NCBI GenBank assembly: GCA_963752285.1
Contig: CAVVXN010000001.1
Location: 1-64,000, forward strand
Length of the DNA stretch: 64,000 nucleotides
Source of the DNA: an uncultured Planctomycetota bacterium
GTDB taxonomy: Bacteria > Planctomycetota > PLA2 > JAEUHO01
Direction of reading: 5' to 3'
Shown here: in pieces, positions 8,661 to 64,000 of the stretch
Layout: every line of letters starts with the position of its first letter
How positions within the stretch are numbered: the first letter of the stretch is position 1
Position numbers and translations under genes: made by a program
Notes under the pieces: model-generated
What the model was told of the DNA's origin: nothing
Databases searched by the model: none
The model's input: only the letters and a program-made list of their open reading frames with translations

Positions 8661-8667
8661 GGTCGTC

Positions 8668-30302: not shown

Positions 30303-30318
30303 GGCCTCCCCCTCTCCC

Positions 30319-46520: not shown

Positions 46521-46724
46521 CTACTTCTTCTTCCGGGGCCGCGTCCCCGCCCCCACCCGCAAAGAGATCCCGTTCACCGAGGCGATCTGGCGCGTCGCGG
46601 TGACGGTCCGGCCCAACTCGGCGGCGATTCGGGGTGCGGGCGTGCCCGCCTTGACGAGCTGGCGGATGCGACGCACGTCGGCGGCGGTGACGGACTGGCG
46701 GTGGTTCTTGGGGCGCTTCGGCAT
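46521..46724 (-). CDS. Small basic HTH-like protein
   Basis: MPKRPKNHRQSVTAADVRRIRQLVKAGTPAPRIAAELGRT, with RBS upstream. Confidence 0.6.
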   Translation of the reverse strand: MPKRPKNHRQSVTAADVRRIRQLVKAGTPAPRIAAELGRTVTATRQIASVNGISLRVGAGTRPRKKK

Positions 46725-46848
46725 CGGGGCTCCTGGGTTGCGAGGAGTATGCGGGCGGGCGGCGACACTCGCTCCGGCAAACAACCATGTTCTCGGCTCG
46801 CGGCGATTGAGTGTCGCCGTCGCCGCGTGGCATGGCCTGCGAGTGCTG

Positions 46849-47065
46849 TCAGCCCGCGACCATCCGCGACACGACGGCGACATGCCACCGCTTCCCCGTC
46901 CGGGGCCGGAACCCGGCGCCGTCCAGGTCCGCTCCCACGGCCCGAAGCGACGCGCCCTCGGATCGGAGCCGCTTCGCCAGCGCGACCGCCTTGGCCTCCA
47001 GCGGCTCCGGCTCGAGCCGCCCGTCGTCGCGGACCCGCCACCCGTACGGCACGCCCCCGATCCGT
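46849..47065 (-). pseudogene. Serine recombinase recombinase-domain fragment
   Basis: GGVPYGWR...GASLRAVGADLDGAGFRPRTGKRWHVAVVSRM. Confidence 0.65.
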
Positions 47066-47306
47066 ATGTCGGACCAGATCCTGAGGCCATGCGGGAGCTT
47101 GAGGCTCGTCGGATCGCACTTCGAGACCGGGAGTCGGCAGAGCAGTACGAGGATGAGGCCATGGGGGACGAGCCCGCCTAGGTTGGGCACGCGTCGAAGC
47201 CTCGACACAGGCCACGCGACGCCCCGCGCCTTGTTGTGACGCCGGATGCTGACGCCCTTGGAGCACAGTTGAGACGGTCTCCTGACCTTTCGTTGCCGCT
47301 CGTTGC

Positions 47307-47319
47307 GCTTGGGAAGCTG
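47307..47319 (-). repeat. Deleted att core remnant (anticodon arm only)
   Basis: GCTTGGGAAGCTG between a left arm matching 55525-55600 and a right arm matching 558-675. Confidence 0.75.
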
Positions 47320-47476
47320 CGTGCCCCCCATCGCAAGTCACGCGTCCCGCGCAGGTTACGACGATCGCCAGAAGCCGTTGAGACCTGGGTTGAGACGAGC
47401 TGAAAGGCCCGCTTGTGACGGCCTTTGGTCCTTGGTGCGAGCGGGCCCCGGCGGGCGCACCAGCGGGTTCCGCTCG

Positions 47477-47752
47477 GAGACCGGCGACCACGTCCCAGAG
47501 TTCCTCGTGACCCGCTGCCGCGAGGCCCGTGCCGCCCGCCCGGCCGCCAACCGAGCTGCACGCTGCGGTGTGCGCAGCGCCTGACGACACCGAAGAGGGG
47601 CCACGCCACTACGAGCCCCGTGCACGACCGTCCCGGCTCCGGGTTGTCCAGCTCCGTTCTCCCCGCCGCGGCCCAGGCCGCGGCAGGAGGAACCCCCCGC
47701 CCCGCTGTTCGAGTACCCGGCAGAAATCTCCGGAAGGGACGGACCCGCACCT
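47477..47752 (+). repeat. Transposase tail (to 47584) and boundary motif (47707-47752)
   Basis: TGDHVPEFLVTRCREARAARPAANRAARCGVRSA*, then GTTCGAGTACCCGGCAGAAATCTCCGGAAGGGAC. Confidence 0.7.
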
Positions 47753-47886
47753 CCCCGCTCTCCAAGACCCGCCGGCCACGGGCCAGAACCACCCCAGCAG
47801 CGACCCAGTCGCGGCAGGAGAACCCTCGGCTCCGGTTCTCGAGTACTCGGGGGGACTCTCCAGTCCGAACGGGCCACGAAGCGCCT

Positions 47887-48552
47887 CTACTTATCGCATC
47901 TAACCTCGAAGTCAGCCTCGGCAACCCACTCGACCACGCCGACACTCCCGCGCCCGATCGGACCCGGGTTCAGGTCGTAGCGCACGTTTCTTGGGGCATC
48001 CAACTCTCGGAAGATAGTCCCGCACTCCACCGAGTCGACCCGAACATGATCGGCGAAGGGGAATGACCCCTCAGGAATCCACTCCCCCTCCCCTCCCTCG
48101 ACGGCACCGGAGAGGGTGTACTCCAGACTGGCCACGCCACTTGCATCCGTGGTTCCGATGGCCCATCCATCTCCAGCGATCTCGCCCGAGGCGCGGGACA
48201 ACTGGATAGACCTCCGGATGGCTTCAACAGCCTCTTCCCTTGCACGAGCCAAAGGGGATGCCACGACGCGGGCATCGGCCACGGGGCGTCCGCTGGCGTC
48301 GATCACGTGGATGCGTACCCGCACGAGCACCGTCCCCGAGCCGACGAATACGCGCTTGCGCCCGCCGACGTCGCGTGAACCGATGCGGAAGCCGGTGGTG
48401 AAGAGCGCCACTCCAGCGATGGCAGCGACGAGCACGACTGAGAGAGCAACCCACGCCCATCGCCCCATCAGCCAACAACTCCGTCCATATTCGCCGCCGC
48501 GCGGACGCGCATCGCTCGAGGGCGCCGGCCCGTTCCGGGTGGAACTGCTCAT
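47887..48552 (-). CDS. Putative immunity protein (TM anchor plus carboxypeptidase-regulatory-like beta domain)
   Basis: VRVRIHVIDASGRPVADARV. Homologous to 57048-57818. Confidence 0.65.
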   Translation of the reverse strand: MSSSTRNGPAPSSDARPRGGEYGRSCWLMGRWAWVALSVVLVAAIAGVALFTTGFRIGSRDVGGRKRVFVGSGTVLVRVRIHVIDASGRPVADARVVASPLARAREEAVEAIRRSIQLSRASGEIAGDGWAIGTTDASGVASLEYTLSGAVEGGEGEWIPEGSFPFADHVRVDSVECGTIFRELDAPRNVRYDLNPGPIGRGSVGVVEWVAEADFEVRCDK

Positions 48553-48565
48553 GCTTTGGGCCCCC

Positions 48566-50431
48566 TCACCGTGCCCACCCTCGCAACGCGTTCGCCGTAT
48601 CCACGATGGACCGAGCGGCGTTCCGGTCGACGCGCTGCCACTCGCTCGACCCTTGCGGGACACCCCCTCTACCTGGATCTGCTGGATGCTCACGGAACTC
48701 AAGTGGCCCCTGCTCAGCGTGACGGACTTCATGCAATACCACACCCACCACCTTTGCTTCCCCGAGCCAGTCACCGTTATTGAATTTGTCCGCCATCTTG
48801 TCCATAAACGAGGTCTTGAAGCGCAGTTCGCCCGATTCAGGGTCGTACTCGCCCTCCGCCCTCGGATCCTGTTGCGCGAGCTCTGGCACTGTTTTAAACC
48901 TGCCATTCTCCAGGAGCGATTCGGCGTGCGCAATCCACTCTGACTTGCCGTTGCCAAACGCCACGGCGTCCAATCGAGCCAGTCGGAGGAGGTCCGCATC
49001 CGAGATCGGCCCACTCGTAGGCACCGCCCCGTGGCCGCCCATGAGCTCCCACATGTTCTGTGCTGCCGCGTGAAATTCGGCTTCGGCGGCATCCAGTGCG
49101 TCCTCAAGGGGGTCGAGAACGGCGATCGCATCATCGACCGCTTGCCACGCATCCGCTTGCTTCGCCCTCGCGTCCTTCAGGGCCGCCTTCAACTCGGCCA
49201 GCTTCTTGTTATCCTCCGCCGGGTCGTAGCACTCATCCTCCGCCTTCTTCTTGATCAGCTCCTCTAGATCGTGGATCTGCTTCTCGAGAGCGAGGGCTGC
49301 GCCCCCTGCGGCGTACGCTGCGTCCAAAGCCGCGAGGTAGGCGTTGTATGCCGCTTCCTCAGCCTTTTGAGCTTTCAGGAGCGCCTGGCCCGCATCACGA
49401 AGCCACTCGACTGGCTTGTTCTCCTTGTCCTTCGGCGCAAGCCCCGAGGGATCGGCGGACGATGCTGGGTCCGATCCGACGTACTCGTGGAGGGACAGCC
49501 CCCCGACGAATCCGGCGGGATCCCTCTGGAGGAACCGCCCGGTGGCCGGGTCGTACGCGCGCGCGCGGAACTAGTAGGTCTTCGTCTCGGCGTCGTACTC
49601 CCGCCCCGTGAAGAGGAACGGGTTCCCCACCGCGCTTTGCGAAACGACCGTCCCCTGTGAGCCGCGGATCGTCGGTTGGCCGTAGACGTCATAGGTCGTC
49701 CACTCGACGACCGCACCGCTCGGTTGCGTGATCTCCGTGACGTCGCCCCTCGCGCTCTGGGCGTAGGTGAAACGCAGGATCTCGCTCGTGTTCCCGTTGC
49801 CGTTGACGTCAGCACCGTCGGCTCGATCCATCGCTCGCGGCTGGTCGATCCCGTCCTCGTAGACATAGCGGGCTTGCCAGACGTCCTGCCCGTCGTACTC
49901 CTCGACGACCTGCTGACCGTCGAGCGCGTAGCGGGTCGTCGCGCCGCCGGAGACGGCCTTCTCGACACGCCGCCCGAGCGCGTCATAGCGGTAGGTCGCG
50001 ATCACGGCCTGCGTCGCCTTGAGCTTCACCTCGACCAGCCGGTTCTCGAAGTCGTAGGCGAAGAGGTACGTCCCGTCGTCCTTGAGGTTCCCGTTGTTGT
50101 CGTGGGTCCGGGTGACGCCGCCGACCTGGGTGTACTGGTTGACCACGTCCGAAGCGTACGTCACGGTCGAGGGCGGGGTCGGCGGGGTCGTGAGCGTCTG
50201 GCTCCGGTTCCCGAGGCCGTCCAGCACGTACTGGGTGTTCTTGGCGAAGGTCTGGCTCCCCGGGTTCTGGACCTCCTGGAGGGGGCTCGTGGTGTCGTAG
50301 CGGACGTCCGTCAGCCGGTACGCCCAGTCGTAGGCGTAGACGCCCCCCTTGGTGTTTCGGGCCGCGAGGAAGGTCTGGACGGCCTGCGGGAGCGTCCCGA
50401 CCCAGGTCGCGTCGAAGGTGTTCTGCTCCAT
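48566..50431 (-). pseudogene. Rhs family A stub with coiled-coil/HEVRH metallopeptidase-like CT and in-frame TAG at 49571-49573
   Basis: Core motifs continue in frame past the stop (FRARAYDP...RFLQRDP). VVLHEVRHAEQ in the CT. Confidence 0.85.
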
Positions 50432-50630
50432 CCGCCGGTTGAGCGCGACCTCCCTTCGCGGACCGCACCACTTCTTCCGAGACCGAGGGTCGCGCTCTCC
50501 ATGTCACCGCGCAAGGGGGAAACCGAGCCGCATGTGATGGATCCGTGAAGTCGGAGTGAGAGCCTCGCGGTGCATCAATTGAGAGTGCGACTCAGTATGA
50601 CCTGCGAAGAAGTTGCATCCGAAGCGGCGA

Positions 50631-51509
50631 TCAGCGAGAAATCGTCACGCGCCGGGGCGCCGAGCGGATTCCGCGCTGCACGGAGATGGGCCCGACGGCG
50701 TCGCTCCCGAGCACGGCGAGCGCGCGAGGCACGTCGACCGCCGCGTCGTCCCCGACCCGCTCGATCACATCTCCCGCGCGGAGGCCGAGTTTCGCCCATC
50801 GGCTCTCCGCCCGGACGCCGGTCACGCGAACGCCCGCGACGCTTCCCTCTTCTCCGTAGAAGGGAACGAGCCTCACGTCGCTTGGGGCGCCACCCCCCGT
50901 CGCAACATCGGAGCCGTTCGCGACTTCTGACGCGGCGCTCGTTCGTAAGACCCCGGATCCCCCGACGCCGCGGACGCGACGGTCCACGGGCCGGTCGAGC
51001 GGGACCACGAACGTGAACGTCTCGGGGCCGCGCGCGAGGGTGATGTGCCCTTCGCGGCGGCGTTCCTCGATGCCGACGATGGAGACGTCCCGGTCGGGAC
51101 GCCCCTCGAGGACCACGTAGGTCTCGGGGTGCGCGGGGTCCTTGGACGTGAGGACCACGGCGTCGGGGCCACCCGGGTCGCGCCACCACCCCGTCACGCG
51201 AAAGGCCCCGAGCGGCGGGCGCGTGGCCGGGCCGACGACGACTGGCTCCGTGACCTCTCGCTTGCAGACCTCCCCCAGGTCGCACGGCCACCAGCCCCGG
51301 AACTCGTGGACGAGCTCGTCCCACGCGACCGGCCCCGTGCGGGTCGGGGCCTCGGCCAAAGGAAGCTCACGGATGCCCCCGTACCGCCAGGAACGCGCCG
51401 TTTCCCCGGATCGGTCCCCGAGCCAGGCTCCCCACGTCGCGAGCGCCCCCACGAGCAGCGCGCCGTTCAGGCGCCAGAGCCAGCGGCGCGTCGCCCGGAA
51501 CCGGACCAC
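50631..51509 (-). CDS. GspC-like PDZ protein copy 3 (more divergent)
   Basis: Paralogue of 31580 and 45365. Confidence 0.78.
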   Translation of the reverse strand: MVRFRATRRWLWRLNGALLVGALATWGAWLGDRSGETARSWRYGGIRELPLAEAPTRTGPVAWDELVHEFRGWWPCDLGEVCKREVTEPVVVGPATRPPLGAFRVTGWWRDPGGPDAVVLTSKDPAHPETYVVLEGRPDRDVSIVGIEERRREGHITLARGPETFTFVVPLDRPVDRRVRGVGGSGVLRTSAASEVANGSDVATGGGAPSDVRLVPFYGEEGSVAGVRVTGVRAESRWAKLGLRAGDVIERVGDDAAVDVPRALAVLGSDAVGPISVQRGIRSAPRRVTISR

Positions 51510-51693
51510 GGAAGACAGGGTAGCGCGAGACGCCCGCCGTGCGAGAGGGCCGTCACGGGACGAACCGGTGCAGGCTGCCGGCCGGCGAGGGGCGTCCTCC
51601 GCCTACGGTCCACCCGAACCTCCTCCACGTCGTCATCGTCTCGCGGCACGCGGGGCAGGACGGCGCGCGGCTCGCCATGGACAACCGGCGTCC

Positions 51694-51996
51694 CTACACG
51701 CTCCCCGTGGGTTCCGCGTCACCGTAGCCCGCTCGGCGCGCGCGGTCTGGATGGTAGGTGCGCATCCACTGGCGCGCGGCCTCGTGCATCGCCCGACCGT
51801 TGGCCGAGCCACCCCACCCCAACTCGTTGTAGATCCGGACGAGATCCGCCGGGCTGGACTTCGCCAGCCATGCGACGACGAGTCGTGACATGTCACCGTA
51901 GATCGTGCTCTGGTCCTGGTAGGCCTCTCCGTCGGCGGTGTGGATCTCCGCCAGCATGCGCGCGAAGACCTCGCGCTCCGTGAAGTTTCGCGACAT
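51694..51996 (-). CDS. Hypothetical protein (100 aa)
   Basis: ATG preceded by GGAGGAG. Protein-like composition. Confidence 0.55.
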   Translation of the reverse strand: MSRNFTEREVFARMLAEIHTADGEAYQDQSTIYGDMSRLVVAWLAKSSPADLVRIYNELGWGGSANGRAMHEAARQWMRTYHPDRARRAGYGDAEPTGSV

Positions 51997-52545
51997 GAGA
52001 TCGACTCCTCCGGTCGGTTCCGATGATCCTCGGGCGACGCCTACACGCGCCCCAGCCCCCGGGTGCGTCGTCCGGAAGCGCGCCACGGGCGACAGCGTAC
52101 AGCGAAGCGCCCCCCGGGAGCTTCCGAGCCAATGACCGGCCGCGCCCGGGCGCGCGGCCGCCGGCCTACCGGCCTCCCGCGATCTCCTCCACGTCGTCGT
52201 CGTCGCGCGTAGCACGCGGGGCCGGACGGCGCGCACCGGCGAGGCGGCGGCGCCGGCGGGGGCGGTAACGGCGGCCGTAAATCCGTACACGCGTCAATGC
52301 GGCCGCGGCGTCGCCGCCGCGGAAGGGTCACGCGACCGAACTCGCCGGCGCGCCGCGATTGGCAGGCGGGGCGAAACCGAGCCGCAGAAGCTGCGTGACT
52401 TGGGTCGCCACTCGAGACGGTCTCCTGACGCTTCCTCGCACTTCGCTGCACGATGTAAGCGAGCGCGGGTGGATCCGCGTTATCGAAGAGGATCGCCGCA
52501 AACGTGCGACGACGCGCGAGTTGCGGCGAGGAGGCGCAACGAAGG

Positions 52546-52594
52546 TGGAGCGCCCGATCGGGCTCGAACCGACGACATTCAGCTTGGGAAGCTG
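52546..52594 (-). repeat. 3' 49 nt of tRNA-Gly(CCC), att core copy 3
   Basis: One mismatch to 509-557. Confidence 0.9.
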
Positions 52595-52831
52595 AGTGCC
52601 CCGACTCGTAAGTCGCGCGCAGTACAGGAGTTACAGATCTTGAGAATGGCCACTGGGACGGATCCTATCGATTTCCAGAGGAACGACCTGCTACGGTGTC
52701 CTGCGAGCCGTTCCGTGCGTTTCGGATTTTGAGAATGGCCGGTGCCGGCCCGCTGGCCGCCAGGGGGCCCACGAAGCGCCGTGGGTCGGTGGCTACAATC
52801 CGGGAACGTCCCCTCGCACCCGGAGACATCC

Positions 52832-53044
52832 ATGAAGTTCCGCATCGTGATCGAACCCGACGAGGATGGGGTCTTCGTGGCGAGTTGCCCGAGTCTCCCG
52901 GGCTGCCATTCGCAGGGCCGGACCCGGGAGGAGGCGCGCGCCAACATCCAGGAGGCGGTCGAGCTCTACCTGGAGTCGCTCCGGGAGCACGGGGAGCCGA
53001 TCCCGCCCGGGATCACGGAGGACGTGGTCGAGGCATCCGGTTGA
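52832..53044 (+). CDS. hicB: HicB-family antitoxin
   Basis: IEPDEDGVFVASCPSLPGCHSQGRTREEARANIQEAVELYLE. Confidence 0.92.
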   Translation: MKFRIVIEPDEDGVFVASCPSLPGCHSQGRTREEARANIQEAVELYLESLREHGEPIPPGITEDVVEASG

Positions 53045-53100
53045 GCCGGCTCCCGGTGGTCTCCGGCCGCGAGGCCGTTCGGGCGTTCGCGAGGATCTCC
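53041..53100 (+). pseudogene. hicA: HicA toxin, first ~19 codons only
   Basis: MSRLPVVSGREAVRAFARI overlaps the hicB stop, then unrelated sequence follows. Confidence 0.7.
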
Positions 53101-53229
53101 GAGCTGGTGGAGAGCATTGGCGGCCGTATCCACTATGACGACATCGACATGTCCGTGCACACTGGGACGATCTACGTCCACGGAGAACAAGACTTCGACA
53201 TCGTCCTTCCTGAGTTTCAGGCGCCTCCG

Positions 53230-53585
53230 ACACCGCGAGACATGATCTGCACGACGATCCTGGTCCGGGCTTCCCGGCCCGTTCACGCATCCCCCGGCCT
53301 GATCGCGGCGGCCGCCGCGTCGCCTCGGTGCCGAGTACTCGGCGGAATCGTCCAGAAGGAACTGGCACACACCTCGGGCGGATATCGCGGCCGCTACCCG
53401 ATATCTCGGCTCCGGGAGCCCCTTCCTTTCGCGCCCATCCGCTCTAAACCACTGCCATCACGGCACTTGCACGTCGTCCAAGAGTAGCCACACCCAACTG
53501 AGAAGCAGCACCCGGTACAAGTCGAACGAAACGTTTCGTTCGAACTGAGAAGAAGCAGAGTCTCGTCGCCCTCCGTCCGCCCCTA
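53230..53585. repeat. Flank shared with 62073-62428, includes boundary motif (53330-53374) and a 22-bp palindrome
   Basis: Direct sequence match. Confidence 0.85.
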
Positions 53586-54071
53586 CTTGGATCCTTCGCG
53601 GCGCGCCAGTAGGTGCACTTTGATGACTCTGCGGGTCGCCCCTCCCGAATCCGAAGCCGACCCCTCGATTGTGCTGGCCGCACCCACATTGACCCATCCG
53701 TCCTTGTACTCCGGTTCAGGATCGCCAGAAACTCTGAATCTCCACCCGCCGAGCCGAATGGTCTTAGTGCGCGCGCGCCAATACCACTCAAGCACATAAG
53801 GACCGAGGGAAAGGAACTCGTAACCTGTCCCATCCCATCGGTCAGTCTGCCCCGGGTCCGTCAACCTCCTAATGGCGTAAAGAAGACCCTCGACGGGAAG
53901 AAACTCGACGGGAGAGGATGAGGCTGGAATCAAGGGACTGGGACTCACGGGAGGAGCGTGCTGGGGAACATCGGCGCAGGTCAGCCCATGGCCGCGGCCA
54001 ATCCAATACCCAACGCCCCCGGCCAACAGTACGGCCGTGGCAGAGATGATCCCGATCGCTCTGTGCGTCAA
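53583..54071 (-). CDS. Putative immunity protein (paralogue 2 of 3)
   Basis: Homologous to 14325 and 62426. Confidence 0.75.
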   Translation of the reverse strand: MTHRAIGIISATAVLLAGGVGYWIGRGHGLTCADVPQHAPPVSPSPLIPASSSPVEFLPVEGLLYAIRRLTDPGQTDRWDGTGYEFLSLGPYVLEWYWRARTKTIRLGGWRFRVSGDPEPEYKDGWVNVGAASTIEGSASDSGGATRRVIKVHLLARREGSK

Positions 54072-55170
54072 TCGTCCCTCCTTCGCCTCGCGCGCGCCTC
54101 GTCGTCGCTTCCAGAAGTTCCCTCACGCTCATGGCGCGCCTTCTCGTCCTTCCTACTCTCGTCTTCTCTCAATCCCGCTCTGTTGGCGTCGCCCTCAGAT
54201 CCCAGTTGATTGACGTCCTCTTCGCTCGTGCCATCCTGTACGTATTCCTCTCCCACGTCCGCCCCCATTGACTCAGCCAATTCCTCCTCGTCGACCACGT
54301 GCCCGTATTCATGATCAAGCAACTTGTCATTGCCCTCCGGATACAGGATGACCAGCCGGCGGAGGCGGGATCGCCACTGCATCTTGTGATAGCCAGGGCG
54401 ATTGCAGGGTTCGACCGACCACTCGTGCCACCAGTCTGACAACGTTCGTGCGTCAACAAGCGTGCCCTCCTCTCCATCGGGATGTTCTGTCCCGATTGGA
54501 TCGGCCGCGCTCTCCGGAATCGGCTCCTCGTCCGGGTGCTCCTCGTTGTACTCTTGGATAGCCTCCCGAGCGTTCTCACGAGACTGCTTGGGATCATTGC
54601 TTCGCTCGTAAGGAACCCTAGTCACAGGCGCCAAGCCCGAGGGGTCTACCCTAATCGTTGGCGTTGATGCCACGTATTCGAAGAGGTTGATTCCTTCCGC
54701 GCAGCCTGCGGGATCCCTCTGCAAGAGCCTACCAGTAGCCGGATCATAACTTCTGTCGCGGTAGTAGTAGAGCCCGTCCTCCGGATCGTACTCCCGCCCC
54801 GTGAAGAGGTACGGGTTCCCGTCCGGGCTCTGGGCGACGGCGGTCCCCTGCTGGCCGAGGATCGTCGGCTTCCCGTACACGTCGTACGTCACCCATTCGA
54901 CGACGCTCCCCCCGGGCTCGGAGATCTCGGTCACCGACCCCAGCGCCTGCTGGTGGTACGTGAAGCGAAGCACCTCGCTCGTGTTCTGGTTTCCGTTCAC
55001 GTCCGCCTGATCCGCCCGGTCCATGACGCGTGGGCGGTCGATCCCGTCCTCGTAGACGTAGCGCGCCTGCCAGACGTCCTGCCCGTCGTACTCTTCGACG
55101 ACCTGCTGTGCGTCGAGCACGTAGCGCGTCGTCGCGCCGCCCGACACGGCCTTCTCGACCCGCCGGCCCG
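54068..55170 (-). pseudogene. Rhs family A stub with HEYGH CT (paralogue 2)
   Basis: Begins at GRRVEKAVSGG. DPSGL and LLDHEYGH motifs. Confidence 0.85.
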
Positions 55171-55570
55171 GCGCATCCGTCGTGCTGCGGGTCGAGACTG
55201 TCCTGCGGGCGCGAGGCGCCGCCGTGCGTCCCGACCGCGGACCTGCCCCGAATTCGGCCATCGAGAGGATGCTATCGCCCCTCGGGTCGGTGCGCCAAGG
55301 TGACGCCGTGGAGGGCATGTGGATGCGACTTCGTTGCGGGCCCGCTTGGGGCGGCTGTCGTCGAGCGGGCGGCGGTCGGGTGGAAGCGGTCCGAGTCTGG
55401 CCAGCCTGGCTGCCTCCGTTGACTGCGCGATGGAGCCGCCCCGTCCCAAGTCCGCGCGCGACGCGGCATCCGAAGGTCGCCTGGGTCCTCGGCCTTCCAT
55501 CTTGCGGTCGGGTGCGTCGCGACTTGTGACGCCAGATGCTGGCGCCCTTGGAGCACAGTTGAGACGGTTT
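54790..55570. repeat. Near-identical block to about 59540-60320 (Rhs stub, ~370-bp spacer, left att arm)
   Basis: Direct sequence match, including the same Rhs truncation point. Confidence 0.85.
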
Positions 55571-55692
55571 CTTGACCTTTCGTTGCCGCTCGTTGCGCTT
55601 TGTCAGGAACGGACGGCCTCGGCGCCGCGCTCGTATCGGGCGCCGCAACGTGGCAACGACGCGCAGGTTGCGGCGAGGAGGCGCAACGAGGG

Positions 55693-55741
55693 TGGAGCGC
55701 CCGATCGGGTTCGAACCGACGACATTCAGCTTGGGAAGCTG
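55693..55741 (-). repeat. 3' 49 nt of tRNA-Gly(CCC), att core copy 4
   Basis: Identical to 509-557. Confidence 0.9.
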
Positions 55742-56018
55742 ACGCACGCGAGTCGTAAGTCTAGCCCCAACCAGGGGTTACGGATCTTGAGAATGGCCAC
55801 TGTGACGTACTTTGTCGATTCCTCCAGGATCGACCTGCTACGGTGTCCTGCGGGCCATTCTGTGCGTTGGGGAAGTTGAGAGTGGCGCCCGGGGCGGGGC
55901 GTGACGCGTCCCCCCCCCTCCGACCGACCACGGGACCCGGGTGCGTGCTGCACGGCTCGCTTGCCTGACCCGCTCCGCGGGGATCGGCGCATCCTCGGAC
56001 GGTATACTCGCCAGCGCC

Positions 56019-56264
56019 GTGCCCATCCTCTCCTACACCGTCCTCTACGAGCCGCAGCCGGACGGCGGGTTCACCGTGCTCGTGCCGGCGTTGCCCGGTT
56101 GCGTCACCGAGGGCGACACGATCGAGGAGGCCCGGCGCATGGCCGCCGATGCCATCCGCGCCTACTGCGAGAGCCTCCTCCAGGATGGCGAGCCCCTGCC
56201 CCCCGACGTCCCGGAGCCCCCGCGTCACGAGCGGATCGAGGTCTCTCTCGCCGGCAGCCGCTGA
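56019..56264 (+). CDS. hicB: HicB-family antitoxin
   Basis: YTVLYEPQPDGGFTVLVPALPGCVTEGDTIEEARRMAADAI. Confidence 0.92.
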   Translation: MPILSYTVLYEPQPDGGFTVLVPALPGCVTEGDTIEEARRMAADAIRAYCESLLQDGEPLPPDVPEPPRHERIEVSLAGSR

Positions 56265-56267
56265 TCC

Positions 56268-56495
56268 ATGGCGGCCCTGCCCGTCCTCCGGCCGCGCGCG
56301 GTCGTAGCCGCCCTGGAGCGAGCCGGGTACGTCGTCCATCACCAGACGGGTAGCCATGTCGTTCTCAAGCACCCGCGACCCCCTGCGCGGCGCGTGGTGG
56401 TGCCGATGCATGGACGCGATCTCAAGAGAGGCACGCTCCGGAGTATCCTCCGCGAGGCCCAGCTGACGGTCGAGGCGTTCATCGATCTGCTCTGA
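56268..56495 (+). CDS. hicA: HicA-family toxin
   Basis: ALERAGY...QTGSHVVLKH...VVVPMHGRDLKRGTLRSIL. Confidence 0.93.
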   Translation: MAALPVLRPRAVVAALERAGYVVHHQTGSHVVLKHPRPPARRVVVPMHGRDLKRGTLRSILREAQLTVEAFIDLL

Positions 56496-56659
56496 TTCGT
56501 GAGCGTCCGGGAGAGCGCCCGCTTGGCGACCCAGTCGTGCTCAAACAAGTTGGCTGCGCTCCGGGAGGACGTCGTCGATCCCACACCACCCACGTTCGCG
56601 CGCTGCTCGAGAAGAAGCGTCGCGGCGAGCGCGACGTGGTCGTGAACCGCTTCCTGGCC

Positions 56660-56982
56660 CTCCCGCACTCCGCCTTTCGCGGAGAGACTCCCGACGACGT
56701 CTACTTCGGGACCGGCGACCACGTCCCGGAGCTCCTCGCCACCCGGCGCCGCGAAGCCCGTGCCGCCGGCCTCGCCGCGAACCGCGCCGCGCGATGCGGG
56801 GTGTGCAGCGCCTGACGACACCGAGGAGGAGGAACCCGACACGGCGGGTCCTATGCCCGGTCGGCCCGACTGGGGGGCGCCGCCGCCACACTTACACACG
56901 CCACGGCCGTCATCGCGGCGGGAGATCCGCGGCCCGGATGTTCGAGTCCTCGGCAGAAATCTCCAGAAGGGATTGACACGCA
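56660..56982 (+). repeat. Transposase tail (to 56815) and boundary motif (56940-56982)
   Basis: PHSAFRGETPDDVYFGTGDHVPELLATRRREARAA. Confidence 0.75.
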
Positions 56983-57047
56983 ACACGGCTACATACCGTC
57001 CTCCCTTCCCAAGTTGACGTGGCGCACCTGACACACAGCAGGGCTTT

Positions 57048-57818
57048 CTATTCATTGCAATGCACGACGAACTCCGCTTCCGCCACTGGCAGACGTCCAG
57101 TTGGCGTCGTAATCCGTCGATAGTGAATGCTCCTGCCGTCGCCCAGCTCTTGCAGCACGGTCCCGCAACTGCGGGCATCGACTCGAACGTAGGCGCCAAA
57201 GACAAATGGCTTCCGTGCCGAGTCCTGCTCATCATCGAAGAGCGGATCGTCACTCTCAGTGAGTCGCGTGAATTCCAGCTCGACGGCGCCGTCTTGACCC
57301 GTTTTTCCGATCGCGCACGTCCATGCCCTCTCGCCCTGAGCAAGCCTGAATTCGATCGCCCTGCGGATACTCTCGACGTCCTCTTCGGTTCGCATCACAT
57401 CCTTCGTCGGGGCCACCATTACACGCGCGCCAGCAACGGGTCTATTCCGCGCGTCGCGCAAGAGTATTCTGACTCGCACGAGGGCCGTCACTGTAACGCA
57501 ACGCGACATCCGCCTCAGACCCCCGTCCGGCTGCGGGCGACTCCGAAGCGCCTCGCCCGCAAGGAGCAGTACAGTGACCAACCCCATTACTCCTAAGACG
57601 ACAAGTAGCCGCCTTCTCCCGCCGCCAATCGCTCTGCTAGCCACCGTGCGACTCTCTCTCCGCCGCACATGCAGCGCAGTCGAGCCTTGCACGGAACACT
57701 CGGTGGATCTCGTTGCTTCGTGCTGCGCTCCGCGAGATCCGGGGGACATTCGGCAACATGGCTGCCGGTTTGCTGGCGGTGGCCATGACGGGTTGTAGCT
57801 GGCTGGGACAACGCCCAA
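57048..57818 (-). CDS. Putative immunity protein homologous to 47887-48552
   Basis: TM segment LLVVLGVMGLVTVLLLAG. VRVRILLRDARNRPVAGARV. Start uncertain. Confidence 0.62.
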   Translation of the reverse strand: MGVVPASYNPSWPPPANRQPCCRMSPGSRGAQHEATRSTECSVQGSTALHVRRRESRTVASRAIGGGRRRLLVVLGVMGLVTVLLLAGEALRSRPQPDGGLRRMSRCVTVTALVRVRILLRDARNRPVAGARVMVAPTKDVMRTEEDVESIRRAIEFRLAQGERAWTCAIGKTGQDGAVELEFTRLTESDDPLFDDEQDSARKPFVFGAYVRVDARSCGTVLQELGDGRSIHYRRITTPTGRLPVAEAEFVVHCNE

Positions 57819-58570
57819 TCCGAGAGAACTCGTCCGTAGCGCGCTCCCAGGTGCGCTTCCTCATGCCCGGCGGCGTTCGATGCCGACCCAAAGCAGTTGC
57901 AGTCTCCGTCGAAGTCCGGATTGCCATATTCGGCACGACCCCTTCAAAGCGAATGCTCATCAGGCTCATCGCTCGGCTCCTGACGTCACCACCTGTTGTT
58001 GTGCATCCGCCCAGAGTGGGGCGCTCGCCCAAACGCCCCTGCGGAGTAAGGACGGCTATGAGGTCTTCCGCACGCCTCCCACCCGATCGTGAGCCGTCAG
58101 TCAGATCCTCGGGCATAGTAGACCTGTACTGGGCAAAGCTCTGCTGTCCATCGACAGCATGGTACACAATTTGACTTAGCCGCGCTACGGCAATGCTAGA
58201 TCCTCCGCAAACCGTTGGTGATATTGCCGACCGGAAGTTCCTCCTCTCGAAGTCGGCCCCCTTGCCTGCGTAGATGGCCATTCCTCGAGTCGGCCCCGAT
58301 GCGGACCCAGTACGCAGGTCCTTGCGCGCCGGCCTCCAGTGCAGCGTGAAAAGCGCTGTGTCTAGGCGCAGCATCTCATCAACTTCTTCGGCTTGTGACC
58401 CTGTCACCGCGGGTAGGGGGGTTCGAAATGACGGCACTACAGGACGGCGGCCCGGCGAACCGAGGCCCGCCGGCACCGGGCACATCGCCGACGCTGTGGA
58501 GAGTAGCAGGCCCCTCCCGCACGAGCGGGAGTCCGGCTTTCGTTGCGACGCAGGAAAAAGCACAGACACA

Positions 58571-59919
58571 TCACCTTCCCCTTTGGGCCCGGTGCACTAT
58601 TTGCTCTATGCCAAGTCCGCTGGACTGGTCAGCGTCGTGCCAGCCACTCTGCCCGCCCCTGGGGGCGTCTCGCTCTGAATCCGCCGGATGCCCGCTCCGC
58701 CCGTCCTCGTGCTCCTCCGCATAGTGCCTGCCCTCATGTAACAGCGTCTCTAGGAGATCGCTCTCCCCCCAGTGCTCCCAGGTGGTCACGGCGTTATCTA
58801 CCGACGAGTACGGTATCCACATCACACCGTCAGAGTACGCTCCCATTGCGTGCTTACCTTCCACCAGAAAGACGGGGTCCGAGTCGGGCGCAAGCGTCAT
58901 TAGACCATTCTCCATAGCATCGTGAACCCATTTCGGGCCGAAGTCGAGGAGGTCCTGCCTCACCATGTCGAGAATGTCTTGTCGTGTCGGCTTGACGCCA
59001 CTTCCATTTAGATCATTTCTGGCGGCATTGAATGTCGCCAGAGCGGCATCGTACGCCGCCGCGGCTTCATCGTAGGCCGTCTGCGCCGCACTGGCGGCTC
59101 GATTGGCCGCATCACGGTCCTCTTTGGCCTTCTGCAGGGCGTCCCACAGATCGTCCAGCTCAGAGTCTCTACCACGAACAAGCGGACCCACATCGCTGCA
59201 TCTGCGCTTCTTGCATGCTGCCTTCCATGCCGAAAGGGCAATGTCATAAGCCTTCTGCGCCGCAGCCGCTTCCTCCTTCGCCTTCTCCAGCGCATCTGAT
59301 GCTCTCGTGTACGCCTTGTAGGCCGCATTGAGCTTTGCGCGCGCAGCAAGTAGCGCCTGCACTTTGGGGTCCCTTGTTTCGAGGCCGAGGGGGTCGACAG
59401 CTGTACAGGGGGCGCTCGTCGTGTACTCGTATGCAGATGGGCCGTCCACATACCCGGCTGGATCGCGCTGCTGAAAGCGCCCGGTGGAAGGATCGTAGAC
59501 TCTCGTCCGGAAGTGGAACTTCCCATCTTCGGCGTCGTACTCCCGCCCCGTGAAGAGGTACGGGTTCCCGTCCGGGCTCTGGGCGACGGCGGTCCCCTGC
59601 TGGCCGAGGATCGTGGGCTTCCCGTACACGTCGTACGTCACCCACTCGACGACGCTCCCACCGGGCTCGGAGACCTCCGTCACCGATCCCAGCGCCTGCT
59701 GGTGGTACGTGAAGCGGAGCACCTCGGTCGTGTTCTGGTTCCCGTTCACGTCCGCCTGGTCGGCCCGGTCCATGACGCGCGGGCGGTCGATCCCGTCCTC
59801 GTAGACGTAGCGCGCCTGCCAGACGTCCTGCCCGTCGTACTCTTCGACGACCTGCTGTGCGTCGAGCACGTAGCGCGTCGTCGCGCCGCCCGACACGGCC
59901 TTCTCGACCCGCCGGCCCG
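58571..59919 (-). pseudogene. Rhs family A stub with coiled-coil/HEGRH metallopeptidase-like CT
   Basis: DPLGL and LETLLHEGRHY. Homologous layout to the CT at 48566. Confidence 0.85.
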
Positions 59920-60441
59920 GCGCATCCGTCGTGCTGCGGGTCGAGACTGTCCTGCGGGCGCGAGGCGCCGCCGTGCGTCCCGACCGCGGACCTGCCCCGA
60001 ATTCGGCCATCGAGAGGATGCTATCGCCCCTCGGGTCGGTGCGCCAAGGTGACGCCGTGGAGGGCATGTGGATGCGACTTCGTTGCGGGCCCGCTTGGGG
60101 CGGCTGTCGTCGAGCGGGCGGCGGTCGGGTGGAAGCGGTCCGAGTCTGGCCAGCCTGGCTGCCTCCGTTGACTGCGCGATGGAGCCGCCCCGTCCCAAGT
60201 CCGCGCGCGACGCGGCATCCGAAGGTCGCCTGGGTCCTCGGCCTTCCATCTTGCGGTCGGGTGCATCGCGACTTGTGACGCCAAATGCTGACGCCCTTGG
60301 AGCACAGTTGAGACGGTCTCCTGACGCTTCCTTGCGCTTCGCTGCACGATGTAAGCGAGCGGACGCGGAGTCGCGCGATCGTAGAGCAACGCCCTAAGCG
60401 TGCAAGGACGCGCAGGTTGCGGCGAGGAGGCGCAACGGGGG

Positions 60442-60490
60442 TGGAGCGCCCGATCGGGTTCGAACCGACGACATCCAGCTTGGGAAGCTG
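60442..60490 (-). repeat. 3' 49 nt of tRNA-Gly(CCC), att core copy 5
   Basis: One mismatch to 509-557. Confidence 0.9.
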
Positions 60491-60717
60491 CCGCGAGTCG
60501 GTCGTAAGTCGCGGCCCACCAGCATCTTACGGATCTTGAGAACTGCCACTGTGACGGATTCTGTCGAAACCCCCAGGATCCACCTGCTACGGTGCCATGC
60601 GGGCCGTTCCAGGCGTTCCGGAAGTTGAGAACGGGGGCGCAGGGCCCCCCGAGCCCGAGGTGCGCCGACCTCCCTCGGGCAGGGGTCACCACCTCCCGCA
60701 GAGTAGGATCGCCACTC

Positions 60718-60945
60718 ATGGACTACCGCGACCGGATCACCATCGACCCCACGCGTCGCGCCGGAAAGCCCTGCATCCGGGACCTGCGGATCACGGTCTA
60801 CGACGTCCTCGAGTACCTCGCCTCCGGCATGACCGAGGCGGAGATCCTCGCGGACTTCCCCGACCTCGAGGCCGAGGATGTCCGGGCGTGCCTCGCGTAC
60901 GCCGCGGATCGAGAGCGCAAGTTCTCCTCCATCCCGCCGCGGTGA
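60718..60945 (+). CDS. DUF433 putative antitoxin
   Basis: RITIDPTRRAGKPCIRDLRITVYDVLEYLASGMTEAEILADFPDL. Confidence 0.92.
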   Translation: MDYRDRITIDPTRRAGKPCIRDLRITVYDVLEYLASGMTEAEILADFPDLEAEDVRACLAYAADRERKFSSIPPR

Positions 60946-60949
60946 CGAC

Positions 60950-61282
60950 CTGCGCCTCCTGCTGGACCAGAACCTGTCGCCTCGCTTGGCACGGGCACTC
61001 GAAGACGTGTACCCGGGAGCCGTCCACGTGAGAGATGTCGGCTTGGCCCACGCGAGCGACACGGCAGTCTGGGACCACGCACTGGCCCGCGACCTGATCA
61101 TCGTGTCCAAGGACGCGGACTTCCACCAGCGGATCTTCCTCTCGGCTCCGCCGCCGAAGGTAATATGGATCCGCCTGGGCAACTGCACGACGAACGAGAT
61201 CGAGGCCCTCCTCCGGCAGCACGAACACGCCATTCGTGAGTTCGCCGACGATGCGACGGCCGCCTTCCTCGCCGTGGGGTAA
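60950..61282 (+). CDS. DUF5615 PIN-like toxin
   Basis: LLLDQNLS...DTAVWDHA...IIVSKDADF...KVIWIRLGN. Start codon atypical or uncertain. Confidence 0.85.
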   Translation: MRLLLDQNLSPRLARALEDVYPGAVHVRDVGLAHASDTAVWDHALARDLIIVSKDADFHQRIFLSAPPPKVIWIRLGNCTTNEIEALLRQHEHAIREFADDATAAFLAVG

Positions 61283-61334
61283 CAGCGAGCGGAGCGGCGC
61301 GGTCTGCGCGGGCCGAGCGCCTCGCCACCGCCTC

Positions 61335-62218
61335 CTACGTCTCCGAGCACAACTCGAAGATCCCACACTCGGCCTTCCAGCGGCAGACCCCGGACGCAGC
61401 GTACTTCGGCACGAGCGCCCACGTCCCCGAGCTCCTCGCCGCGCATCGCCGCGAGGCTCGTGCCCCCTGGCTCGCGGCCAATCGCGCGGCACGATGCAGG
61501 GTGTGCTCCGCCTGACGACACCGAGGAGGACCTCCGCCCACCTGAGCCCCATGCACGGTCGGCGCGAACGCGGGTGCCACCGTCTCGCTCACGCCCTCCG
61601 CCGCCGGATCGCGGCAGGGGGACCCGCGGCCCCGGTGTTCGAGTACTCGGCAGATTTCTCCAGAAGGGATTGGCACGCACCTCGGCTCCATGCCGTCCTC
61701 CCTTCCCAAGTTGACGTGGCGCACTTGACACGCAACTCCGGCCTGCGCCCGACACAGGTTGACGTCCGGCGCGGGCCAACGTGCCCCTACCTGGGTTCAC
61801 GAGACGGATACCGGAAGGAACTGGCACACACCGCCGCGGATTCCGTATGCTCCGCCGATGCACCGAGCGTGCTACGTCTCCGAGCCCAACGCCAAGATCC
61901 CGCACTCGGCCTTCCAGGGCCAGACTCCGGACGAGGTCTACTTCGGCACCGGCGACCACGTCCCCGAGCTCCTCGCCACCCGGCGCCGCGAAGCCCGTGC
62001 CGCCCGCCTCGCCGCCAACCGCGCTGCGCGATGCGGGGTGTGCACCGCCTGACGACACCGAGGAGGACCTCCGACACCGCGAGACATCATCTGCACGACG
62101 ATCCTGGTCCGGGCTTCCCGGCCCGTTCACGCATCCCCCGGCCTGATCGCGGCGGCCGCCGCGTCGCCTCGGTGCCGAGTACTCGGCGGAATCGTCCAGA
62201 AGGAACTGGCACACACCT
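61335..62218 (+). repeat. Two tandem transposase tails (to 61515 and 62052), each followed by the boundary motif (61637-61682, 62174-62218; partial copy 61811-61832)
   Basis: KIPHSAFQGQTPDEVYFGTGDHVPELL...CGVCTA*. Confidence 0.75.
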
Positions 62219-62425
62219 TGGGGGGATATCGCGGCCGCTACCCGATATCTCGGCTCCGGGAGCCCCTTCCTTTCGCGCCCATCCGCTCTAAACCACTGCC
62301 ATCACGGCACTTGCACGTCGTCCAAGAGTAGCCACACCCAACTGAGAAGCAGCACCGGTACAAGTCGAACGAAACGTTTCGTTCGAACTGAGAAGAAGCA
62401 GAGTCCCGTCGCTCTCCGTCCGCCC

Positions 62426-62914
62426 CTACTTGGGTCCTTCTCGACGCGCCAGCAGGTGCACTTTGATGACTCTGCCGGCCGCTCCTGCCGACTCCGAAGC
62501 CGACCCCTCGATCGTGCTGGTCGCACCGACATCGACCCACCCGTCCTTGTAGTCCGGTGCAGGATCGCGAGAAACCTTAAATCTCCACCCGCCGAGCCGG
62601 ATGGACTTCGTCCGCGCGCGCCAATACCAATCACCCACATGAGGCCCCAGGGAGAGGAACTCGTATCCCGTCCCATTCCATGCGCCACTATGCCCGGGAT
62701 CCGTCAGCTGCCGAATGGCGTGGAGAAGACCCTCGACTGGGAGAAACTCAACCGGAGAGGATGAGGCTGGAATCAAAGCATTGACTCTAGCAGGAGGGGC
62801 GCTCGGGGGAACTTCGACACAGGTCAGTCCGTGGCCCCGGCCAATCCAATACCCCACGCCCCCCGCCAATAGGACGGCCGTGGTAGCGAGGATCGCAAGC
62901 GCTCTCTGCATCAA
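62426..62914 (-). CDS. Putative immunity protein (paralogue 3 of 3)
   Basis: Very close to 14325-14813. Confidence 0.75.
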   Translation of the reverse strand: MMQRALAILATTAVLLAGGVGYWIGRGHGLTCVEVPPSAPPARVNALIPASSSPVEFLPVEGLLHAIRQLTDPGHSGAWNGTGYEFLSLGPHVGDWYWRARTKSIRLGGWRFKVSRDPAPDYKDGWVDVGATSTIEGSASESAGAAGRVIKVHLLARREGPK

Positions 62915-64000
62915 TCGTCCCTCCTGCGCCTCTCGCGTGCCTCGTCGTCGCTTCCGGCCGTACCGACACGCTCATGGCGCCTCTTCTCGTCCTTTCTGCT
63001 CTCTTCCTTCCTCGAGTCGGCTCTGTTGGCGTCGCCGGCAGCTCCCAGTTGACTTGCGTCCTCGCCACTCGTGCCATCTTGTACGTATTCCTCGCCCACG
63101 TCCATCCCCATTGACTCAGCCAACCTTTCCTCGTCGACCACGTGCCCGTATTCGTGATCAAGCAACTTGTCGTCGCCCTCCGGATATAGGATGACAAGCC
63201 GGAGGAGCCTGGATCGCCACTGCATCTTGTGATAGCCAGGGCGATTGCAGGACTCGATCGACCACGTGTGCTCCCAGTCTGGCCACGTGAGCGCGTCGAC
63301 AAGCGCGCCCTCCTCTCCATCCGGATGTTGTGTCCCAATGGGATCGGCAGCGCTCTCAGGGATCGGCTCCTCGTCCGGGTGTTCATCGTTATAGTCATGG
63401 ATGGCCTCACGAGCATTCTCTCGATCCTGCTTAGGGTCACCGGTGCGTTCGTAAGAAATTCTCGTCACAGGTGCCAAGCCTGACGGGTCAGCCTTAACTG
63501 TTGGCGTAGAGGTCACGTATTCGATAAGATTGAAGCCTTCCGAGTATCCTGAAGGATCTCTTTGCACGAATCGGCCGGCGGAGGGGTCATATGTCCTCGC
63601 CCTATAAAAGTACAGCCCATCCTCGGCGTCGTACTCCCGCCCCGTGAACAGGTACGGGTTCCCGACCGGGCTCTGGGCGACGGCGGTCCCCTGCTGGTCG
63701 AGGACCCTCGGCTTCCCGTACACGTCGTACGTCACCCACTCGACGACGCTCCCGCCCGGCTCCGAGAGCTCCGTCACCGACCCCAGCGCCTGCTGGTGGT
63801 ACGTGAAGCGGAGCACCTCGGTCGTGTTCTGGTTCCCGTTGACGTCCGCCTGGTCGGCCCGGTCCATGACGCGCGGGCGGTCGATCCCGTCCTCGTAGAC
63901 GTAGCGGGCCTGCCAGACGTCCTGGCCGTCGTACTCCTCGACGACCTGCTGTGCGTCGAGCACATACCGGGTCGTCGCGCCGCCCGACACGGCCTTCTCG
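62911..64000 (-). CDS. Rhs family A core with HEYGH CT (paralogue 3; cut by window edge)
   Basis: Core motifs, DPSGL and LLDHEYGH. Confidence 0.85.
   Translation of the reverse strand, partial: EKAVSGGATTRYVLDAQQVVEEYDGQDVWQARYVYEDGIDRPRVMDRADQADVNGNQNTTEVLRFTYHQQALGSVTELSEPGGSVVEWVTYDVYGKPRVLDQQGTAVAQSPVGNPYLFTGREYDAEDGLYFYRARTYDPSAGRFVQRDPSGYSEGFNLIEYVTSTPTVKADPSGLAPVTRISYERTGDPKQDRENAREAIHDYNDEHPDEEPIPESAADPIGTQHPDGEEGALVDALTWPDWEHTWSIESCNRPGYHKMQWRSRLLRLVILYPEGDDKLLDHEYGHVVDEERLAESMGMDVGEEYVQDGTSGEDASQLGAAGDANRADSRKEESRKDEKRRHERVGTAGSDDEARERRRRDD

Follow-up and report, generated by a model that had tools for sequence, protein, structure and literature searches.

The window analyzed here is the whole stretch of 64,000 nucleotides, the first 64 kb of contig C1 in the assembly of a soil planctomycete (G000; five contigs, 4.64 Mb, 89% complete). 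It is occupied throughout by an Rhs-rich array that reads on the minus strand and adjoins a glycine tRNA gene. The 3' part of the Rhs core is present in nine copies in the window (repeat family D1), and two full-length rhs genes are located at 23997-30395 and 37861-44085, both on the minus strand. A repeat of 284 nucleotides (nt) that carries an attachment site (att; family D13) appears five times, at positions 351, 21926, 52388, 55535, and 60284, and its last two spacings are 3147 and 4749 bp. Three consecutive small units, U1, U2, and U3, lie at this end of the array and extend from core to core from 52546 to 55693 (3147 bp), 55693 to 60442 (4749 bp), and 60442 to 64538 (4096 bp), respectively. 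U3 is closed beyond the end of the window, 538-613 nt out, at an intact tRNA gene.

The plan common to U1-U3 consists of a right arm, a toxin-antitoxin (TA) pair, an insertion sequence (IS) remnant, a putative immunity gene, an Rhs stub, a spacer, and a left arm. A first-pass annotation of the same DNA had described three consecutive att-to-att units with one plan, and this description was confirmed using repeat alignment, the tRNA fragments, and Pfam.

Attachment Sites and the tRNA-Gly(CCC) Gene

The att repeat has an invariant block, which in reverse complement corresponds to the 3'-terminal 48-55 nt of tRNA-Gly(CCC), a segment that extends from the anticodon stem through CCA. The intact gene is found on the complementary strand of C1 at 64538-64613, 538 nt past the window end. 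Fragments of this tRNA appear in the window at 509, 22084, 52546, 55693, and 60442, together with a degenerate copy near 47300; no whole tRNA was detected in the window by ARAGORN or Rfam. The att core at the distal edge of U1 (52546-52595, minus strand) is 50 nt in length and matches positions 27-76 of the 76-nt tRNA with 98% identity. The cores at the U1/U2 junction (55693-55745) and the U2/U3 junction (60442-60494), also on the minus strand, are tRNA-Gly fragments of 53 nt. Like cis-mobilizable elements (CIMEs), the units lie between direct repeats derived from the 3' end of the target gene.

A left arm of about 158 nt is located to the left of every core. The left arm of U1 (55535-55692) includes a conserved hairpin adjoining the core, and that of U2 was placed at 60284-60441 by repeat alignment. 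The spacer and left arm of U3 lie outside the window, before the intact tRNA. Two types of right arm were recognized. The R1 type is found at 22084, 52546, 55693, and 60442, and the R2 type at 509, at about 47300, at C2:8995, and at C3:15186. The R1 arm of U1 (52596-52739, plus strand) contains two copies of a TTGAGAATGG-like motif; those of U2 (55746-55886) and U3 (60495-60635), both on the plus strand, were delimited by repeat alignment. The arm motif KTTGAGARYGG is matched 13 times in the window against 6.2 expected, a count reached by 3 of 100 shuffled sequences, and is not enriched overall; six of the 13 matches fall in the four R1 arms.

The 35-50 nt of the left arm next to the core (55650-55692), which contain the inverted repeat GTTGCG...CGCAAC, are also kept beside intact tRNA-Gly(CCC) genes in other genera. 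They may form a hairpin that natively serves tRNA 3' processing or termination and that the elements bring along to restore the gene. A degenerate att junction was observed at 47234-47340, in which the beginning of a left arm leads into only the final 13 or so nucleotides of the core, with an R2-type right arm after them. The apparent 30-kb island from 22084 to 52546 is therefore really two units of about 25 kb and 5.2 kb. Positions 1-7607 of the window are repeated on C2:8489-16111 with 99.2% identity over 7.6 kb, and further Rhs/att units are present at the ends of C2 and C3; the array extends beyond the window.

The order of left arm, core, and right arm is the geometry expected from successive integrations of such an attP into one tRNA gene. 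The possibility that the repeat is an integron attC site was considered and rejected, as the units are bordered by direct repeats that derive from a tRNA and are flanked by conserved arms. A scan of the window at the Rfam gathering thresholds gave zero matches, and no integron platform (attC, IntI, or attI) was found in it. The tyrosine recombinases that were found are of two kinds only, a phage-type integrase and an Xer-like gene beside an IS91 transposase. The integron parallel drawn in the first-pass annotation is thus limited to function.

Toxin-Antitoxin Pairs, IS Remnants, and Rhs Stubs

All 87 open reading frames (ORFs) of at least 60 aa in the interval 51697-63990 were searched against Pfam at its cut-offs; five matched and 82 did not. 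The matching ORFs are HicB at 52742-53041, HicB at 55941-56261, HicA at 56268-56492, DUF433 at 60592-60942, and DUF5615/PIN_10 at 60878-61279. U1 therefore contains hicB with a broken hicA, U2 contains hicBA, and U3 contains a DUF433-PIN pair.

The hicB antitoxin gene of U1 occupies 52832-53044 on the plus strand, with an ATG at 52832 and a Pfam domain at 52838-53008 (48.9 bits). It is followed by a hicA remnant at 53045-53097 (plus strand) that keeps only the first 17 or so codons. The truncation of hicA, which had been proposed previously, is genuine: homology to the intact hicA of genome G016, from another genus, ends at 53097. The hicB and hicA genes of U2 span 56019-56495 on the plus strand, with a GTG start for hicB at 56019 or 55941 and hicA at 56268-56495. 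The HicB_lk_antitox and HicA_toxin domains are adjacent, with scores of 44.9 and 71.8 bits, respectively, as in a HicAB pair. In U3, a DUF433 antitoxin-like gene with an ATG at 60718 overlaps a DUF5615/PIN_10 toxin-like gene at 60878-61282, so that the pair occupies 60718-61282 on the plus strand; the scores are 88.9 and 114.8 bits, respectively, and the two domains form a recognized pair.

The likely start codons of the TA pairs are located 237, 274, and 224 bp past the end of the core in U1, U2, and U3, respectively. These values and the Pfam assignments bear out the earlier description of a different TA pair in each unit, starting about 230-280 bp after the core. Across the 4.64-Mb genome, the U1-U3 slots contain both of the HicB matches, the single HicA match, one of two DUF433 matches, and one of two DUF5615 matches. 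By these genome-wide counts, the presence of TA pairs in the three slots is not due to chance. The other DUF433/DUF5615 pair of the genome is found at C1:925215-925619, where it is cut by the contig end, and no att or arm was found near it at this far end of C1. At the neighboring R1 island at 22084, the TA pair has been wholly lost. A scan for sigma-70-type promoters in 52300-64000 returned zero sites against 1.2 expected; such a scan may be ill suited to the phylum. Each TA pair comes with an upstream region of its own, and a TACAAT box upstream of the TA genes is kept between U1 and G016.

The remnant that follows the TA pair consists of the 3'-terminal 50-77 codons of an rve-type transposase gene (...HSAFQGQTPDEVYFG...CGVCSA, then stop), about 190 nt of further sequence, and a terminal motif of about 50 nt, GTGTTCGAGTACTCGGCAGAA.TCTCCAGAAGG.A.TGACACGCA, the boundary motif of the first-pass annotation. 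The transposase tail reported in front of this motif proved to be the C-terminal end of an rve-type transposase. That the tail might be a chance ORF was rejected. The remnants of U1-U3 are all on the plus strand. In U1, 148 nt of the IS 3' end remain at 53224-53371; this remnant ends in the terminal motif, and the transposase tail is deleted. The remnant of U2 at 56661-56988 contains the rve-type C-terminal tail, about 190 nt, and the terminal motif. U3 has two successive remnants, at 61361-61734 and 61898-62215, each with a tail and a motif. Only the last 76 nt remain at the 22084 island. The remnants thus share a common outer end and differ at their inner ends, with lengths of 76 nt (22084 island), 148 nt (U1), 328 nt (U2), and 374 and 318 nt (U3). 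No full-length copy of the IS to which the tail belongs was found in G000, where all eight tblastn matches are 77 aa or shorter, and the ORFs adjoining the dispersed tail copies do not match a transposase family. The other transposase tails are mostly located near other Rhs loci.

The Rhs stub of U1 (54068-55177, minus strand) is composed of 177 core codons, the motif DPSGL at 54632-54646, and a 187-aa C-terminal region (CT) containing HEYGH. That of U2 (58571-59926, minus strand) has the same 177 core codons, DPLGL at 59381-59395, and a 269-aa CT containing HEGRH. The stub of U3 occupies 62911-64000 in the window and runs to 64020 on the minus strand, with DPSGL at 63475-63489 and a 187-aa CT containing HEYGH. 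All three stubs are truncated at one point, exactly 177 core codons ahead of DPxGL; the sharing of a truncation point had been noted before, for two units instead of three. The core of the stubs is 85-91% identical in nucleotide sequence to the full-length rhs genes. As in Rhs orphan modules, the core fragment of each stub closes with PxxxxDPxGL and gives way to a variable CT. The stubs lie at higher coordinates and are therefore upstream of the full-length rhs genes, with att sites between them, and not downstream. The same truncation junction also occurs outside this array, at C3:13336 and C1:827471.

Each stub is accompanied by a small gene on the minus strand. In U1, this gene (53583-54071, 162 aa) overlaps the stop of the stub with its start; in U2, it (57637-58569, 310 aa) starts 1 nt after the stop of the stub; and in U3, it occupies 62426-62914 (162 aa). 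These genes are considered putative immunity genes. The immunity assignment, also made in the first-pass annotation, is based on position only; in Pfam, neither the stubs, the CTs, nor these genes returned anything meaningful, even at E values up to 1. Proteins with HEAT repeats repeatedly adjoin Rhs genes, at 30322-31440 and 44131-45225 in the window and at L002 859-2010 and L024 7897-9306, in this genome and in that of a sister species (G001), and may have an accessory or immunity role in these Rhs systems. The spacer of U1 (55178-55534) is 357 bp in length and lacks a coding signature: its GC content by codon position is 0.66/0.76/0.73, compared with 0.68/0.45/0.85 in the stub. The spacer of U2 (59927-60283) was identified by sequence identity to that of U1.

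The identities among the units are mosaic. The spacer is 100% identical between U1 and U2 (99.7% by BLAST) and 97% identical between either of these and U3. The left arms of U1 and U3 are 98% identical, and those of U1 and U2 are 78% identical. The right arms are about 70% identical in every pair. The immunity gene and CT are 83-84% identical in nucleotide sequence between U1 and U3 and 41-49% identical between either of these and U2; the terminal motifs of U1 and U3 are 100% identical, and the two units are 87% identical over 1.9 kb. The CT-immunity pairs, described in the first-pass annotation as differing between units, do differ for U2 but are of the same type in U1 and U3. Given that different CT and immunity sequences stand behind one illegitimate junction, either the CT block was replaced or the junction was spread by recombination after the truncation. 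The earlier suggestion that CTs were swapped after the stubs had formed is consistent with the first of these. Such an exchange would most obviously have used the conserved Rhs core as one homology arm and the IS-end motif as the second. The mosaic pattern, taken from these alignments, points to ongoing homologous recombination.

Integrase Fragments and Conservation of the TA Slot

No integrase or transfer family was found among the 87 ORFs, a further property that the units share with CIMEs. The intact 413-aa integrase of the sister species G001 was used as a tblastn query and has no match in 52546-64537. Against the 89%-complete G000 assembly, only pieces of the cognate integrase were recovered. 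Residues 109-402 are encoded at C1:20858-21739, immediately adjoining the 5' end of a minus-strand rhs fragment at 17973-20861. The piece for residues 1-109 is 13 kb distant, at C1:34863-35189, beside an ISAzo13-type transposase fragment. Further pieces, corresponding to residues 326-378, 349-399, and 263-403, were located by tblastn at C1:10640-10798, C1:1-141, and C2:8231-8653, respectively. The other tyrosine recombinases of G000 are at most 37% identical to the G001 integrase. One is an Xer-like tyrosine recombinase (Phage_integrase and SAM-like domains) that is followed by an IS91-family Y2 transposase at 7812-9864, within an rhs fragment.

At 351 and 21926, a plus-strand integrase gene extends into the left arm. 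In G001, the intact integrase is followed by a left arm and core and is found beside DUF2924, a DUF3987 primase, a ParB-like protein, and a methylase. From this adjacency, the G001-type integrase would be the enzyme that uses the same att. With only pieces of it in G000, U1-U3 are non-autonomous, and nothing both cognate and intact is present in the assembly to move them. The first-pass term "non-autonomous satellites" therefore holds for the lack of autonomy; the present-day mobilization that "satellites" implies is not supported, as the cognate integrase is in fragments in this 89%-complete assembly.

Public reads were available from four soil runs of one study, which contained 0.07-0.19 of the sampled words and are kept as contigs only. 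On positions 46001-64000, the contigs from the four runs gave short pieces and no joints, in material uninformative for excision, strain variation, or habitat, and their loose ends belong to tRNA-Gly genes of other organisms. A 43-letter pattern spanning left arm and core had zero matches in the metagenome contigs. A 31-letter left-arm pattern matched one 1045-bp contig with a tRNA and left arm similar to those of G001, which is too short to contain a unit.

Fragments of the tRNA 3' end with at least 90% identity are present in eight genomes among 29 of the family. The fetched loci contained 17 long fragments after five loci duplicating others were dropped. One fragment with only 78 bp on its right-arm side was set aside to leave 16 assessable cores, and one core from a scan of genome contigs was added to give 17. 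At five of the 17, in four other genera, Pfam recognizes a TA pair that starts at a distance of 131-270 bp and is oriented away from the core. These are DUF4160/DUF2442 and MNT/HepT at two cores of G009, HicB/HicA in G016, DUF433/DUF5615-PIN in G011, and DUF2442/DUF4160 in G042. The first-pass annotation had made its proposal depend beforehand on conservation of the TA position elsewhere, and that position does recur. The TA slot is frequent but not universal.

The hicB and start of hicA in G016 are 84.1% identical to those of U1 over 308 nt; at the protein level, the two HicB sequences share 88.6% identity across 70 aa. The recurrent position of the TA pair and the hicBA common to two genera suggest a family of tRNA-targeting elements with a dedicated TA/defense slot. 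In G001, the tRNA locus is syntenic with that of G000, with flanks that are 70-76% identical in nucleotide sequence, and the unit closest to the tRNA is made up of an MNT/HepT pair whose end is 60 nt short of the left arm. The unit of G042 is 2.6 kb in length and contains only the TA pair and one rve IS. In G009, one unit measures 1.6 kb, and a left arm-core-right arm junction with arm sequences of its own is repeated.

The scan of genome contigs with the 49-nt core returned 19 loci, nearly all in genomes already covered. Five are from other records: L056 and L061 are fragments, the latter at a contig end, and L060, L065, and L066 are intact tRNA genes. L056, labeled as an uncultured Chloroflexia, contains the 49-nt core with an integrase of 586 aa to its left-arm side; two small ORFs without a family assignment begin 267 bp away on the right-arm side, where no Pfam TA family was found. 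This contig could represent mis-binning or cross-phylum transfer. Short copies of the tRNA 3' end, 28-31 nt from the T arm to CCA, were also observed about 145-215 nt downstream of the tRNA or a long core. Those of L015 (G009:C4) are at 5963-5991, 6176-6204, 15701-15729, and 19638-19666, and others are found in G013, G042, G043, and G044. Either an additional type of integrase with its crossover in the T loop or tiny empty units may have left these copies behind.

Origin of the Units and Comparison with Known Systems

U1-U3 are probably decayed CIME-like remnants that were accreted by site-specific integration and then remodeled by IS-linked deletions and homologous recombination. In this view, integrative elements would stand in a long tandem array in tRNA-Gly(CCC), and the region would be its end closest to the tRNA. 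A tyrosine integrase would recombine an attP, composed of the left arm, a core of about 50 nt from the tRNA 3' end, and the right arm, with the tRNA gene. Each arrival would enter the intact tRNA, with older elements pushed outward, and for this reason the internal junctions would all read left arm, core, and right arm. U1-U3 would then be integrase-less survivors (CIMEs) of this accretion. Their backbone would have comprised the right arm, the TA pair with its own upstream region, the IS remnant, the immunity gene, the CT, the 177-codon Rhs stub, the spacer, and the left arm. Deletions anchored at the outer end of the rve-type IS between the TA pair and the immunity gene are proposed to have left the unequal IS remnants, cut the hicA of U1, and removed the TA pair at the 22084 island. 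The spacer would have been homogenized, and the CT/immunity blocks that lie between the conserved Rhs core and the IS-end motif swapped, by homologous recombination or gene conversion involving the many repeats of Rhs, spacer, and arm sequence. The array shows decay: hicA is broken, the island at 22084 has lost its TA pair, the IS truncations are nested, and the integrase is shattered. Within this scheme, the TA slot adjacent to att is best read as an ancestral backbone feature of the element family, to judge from its recurrence in the sequences compared. The TA pair beside the right arm is most likely an addiction or defense module.

Several observations weigh against this scheme. Contig C1 begins within the array, and the distal end and native attB flank were not found in the assembly. 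Five of the eight right arms in G000 (the R1 arm at 22084 and all four R2 arms) are without a recognizable TA pair, as are 12 of the 17 assessable cores in the relatives, which have Rhs/HEAT genes, kinases, or unassigned ORFs instead, with one weak NTP_transf_5 match. The right arm of G016 is barely alignable to that of U1 despite the 84% identity of hicBA, and the TA pair may thus move independently of the arm, which a simple backbone model does not predict. A spacer of 99.7-100% identity beside a left arm of 78% identity would also be expected if the units had recently been duplicated or converted locally, without any site-specific event. Mobility at any time is deduced from anatomy alone, and the contig sets, in which this organism has a low share, showed no excision or deletion joint.

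The function of the TA pairs can be read differently under either origin. They might be anti-phage defense cargo in an att-side hotspot instead of stabilizers of the array, a tentative and rather unlikely reading. Defense hotspots on the att side exist in P2/P4-type elements. The families found in the slot (HicAB, MNT/HepT, DUF4160/DUF2442, and DUF433/PIN) are of TA or abortive-infection types, AbiEii is nearby in G009, and the primase, ParB-like, and methylase genes of the autonomous relative are typical of phage-like or plasmid-like elements. On the other side, one of the TA pairs is already broken. Stabilization of the array by TA pairs, as put forward in the first-pass annotation, is only putative: the toxin gene of U1 is broken, and the R1 island at 22084 no longer has a TA pair.

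It is doubtful that the units are live cassettes, in which a trans-acting integrase would still excise circles of 3.1-4.7 kb and re-insert them, with tRNA-Gly serving as an integron-like collector of TA pairs and Rhs tips. All internal junctions do retain full left arm-core-right arm sites, with cores that are 89-96% identical, and units made up entirely or nearly so of TA genes are found in G042, G009, and G001, where the MNT/HepT pair precedes the left arm. The same hicBA also occurs in the same slot of another genus with 84% nucleotide identity, compared with 70-76% for syntenic flanks within the genus. Against these points, the assembly contains no intact cognate integrase, the hicA of U1 is broken, the IS remnants are truncated, no circle or joint appeared in the uninformative contig sets, and the mosaic identities indicate homologous recombination.

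A broader proposal, which we regard as unlikely, is that, in this planctomycete family, tRNA-Gly(CCC) is the docking site of a tRNA-att cassette system in which minimal TA modules are collected in tandem and exchanged between genera, and that the array is a self-stabilizing store and a horizontally supplied library that re-arms the full-length Rhs proteins of this array. In such a system, the TA/abortive-infection pair at the right arm may be the sole constant cargo, with Rhs tips and immunity genes riding along.

It is quite unlikely that only one ancestral unit was inserted site-specifically and that the others arose from it through unequal crossovers at the Rhs, spacer, and att repeats, with TA and CT/immunity genes replaced later by gene conversion or illegitimate recombination: the near-identity of the spacers (99.7-100% for U1-U2, 97% to U3), the unique truncation junction shared by the three units, C3:13336, and C1:827471, and the 87% identity of U1 and U3 over 1.9 kb fit such amplification, but right arms of about 70% identity and unrelated TA families make the core-proximal parts much older than the spacer, and the core-to-TA geometry recurs in four other genera with other arms, which local duplication cannot yield.

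To our knowledge, the travel of new Rhs or polymorphic-toxin tips between genomes is poorly documented, and we know of few studies of mobile elements in this phylum. An Rhs tip in a small unit bounded by integrase sites provides a concrete, testable vehicle for tip transfer. If the units can be excised, they would represent a second, integron-independent route to TA-studded cassette arrays; if they cannot, they offer a clear worked example of the decay of tandem islands.

The literature searched, outside of which lie subscription papers and supplements, contained no description of mini-units that are bounded by att sites, sit at a tRNA gene, and have their TA slot in a fixed place, of Rhs tips packaged in this way, or of such arrays in Planctomycetota. 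The pieces are already known: CIME accretion at tRNA genes, TA pairs on islands, Rhs orphan modules and their cassette recombination, and integron TA cassettes. In the available part of PMC5704250, CIMEs are defined as elements that have lost their integration genes and kept attL and attR, a three-step model of accretion is given, and tandem accretion of islands of the integrative and conjugative element (ICE) and integrative and mobilizable element (IME) types at tRNA genes is described for ICESt1/ICESt3-related elements of Streptococcus. According to the same text, integration genes are lost and attL/attR retained, as in U1-U3, and TA modules are common cargo. The units described here differ in being tiny (3.1-4.7 kb, and 1.6-2.6 kb in relatives), with at least three in a row, in the fixed position of the TA pair beside one arm across genera, in having an orphan Rhs tip as the other cargo, and in their planctomycete host. 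No conjugation genes were seen in them, and they are known from sequence alone.

The TA cassettes of superintegrons are small units bounded by recombination sites, contain diverse TA pairs, and are thought to oppose large deletions. Arrays of small site-bounded units interspersed with TA pairs are common to both systems. In contrast to superintegrons, the array in G000 has no attC, attI, or IntI; its units have tRNA-derived direct repeats of about 50 nt, arms of about 150 nt, and a tyrosine integrase that would target the tRNA.

Orphan Rhs and contact-dependent growth inhibition (CDI) toxin-immunity modules are located near full-length rhs genes, with CTs exchanged via recombination in the conserved core, as stated in the accessible part of PMC3482391; orphan modules and C-terminal displacement are also treated in the corresponding parts of PMC3967940 and PMC7043789. 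Like these orphans, the stubs of U1-U3 consist of a core fragment ending in DPxGL, a variable CT, and an adjacent small gene. They differ in being upstream of the full-length rhs genes, each in its own att-bounded unit with a TA pair, and in having one truncation junction, a near-identical noncoding spacer, and an IS-end motif as a possible second homology arm. A 48-kb composite island at a tRNA gene of Shewanella putrefaciens CN-32, for which the available portion of PMC8978831 credits HipAB with stabilization and reports recombination shown experimentally, is likewise composite, tRNA-gene-borne, and equipped with TA genes; compared with this island, the units of the planctomycete array are minimal, are devoid of an integrase, and have been recognized by sequence analysis.

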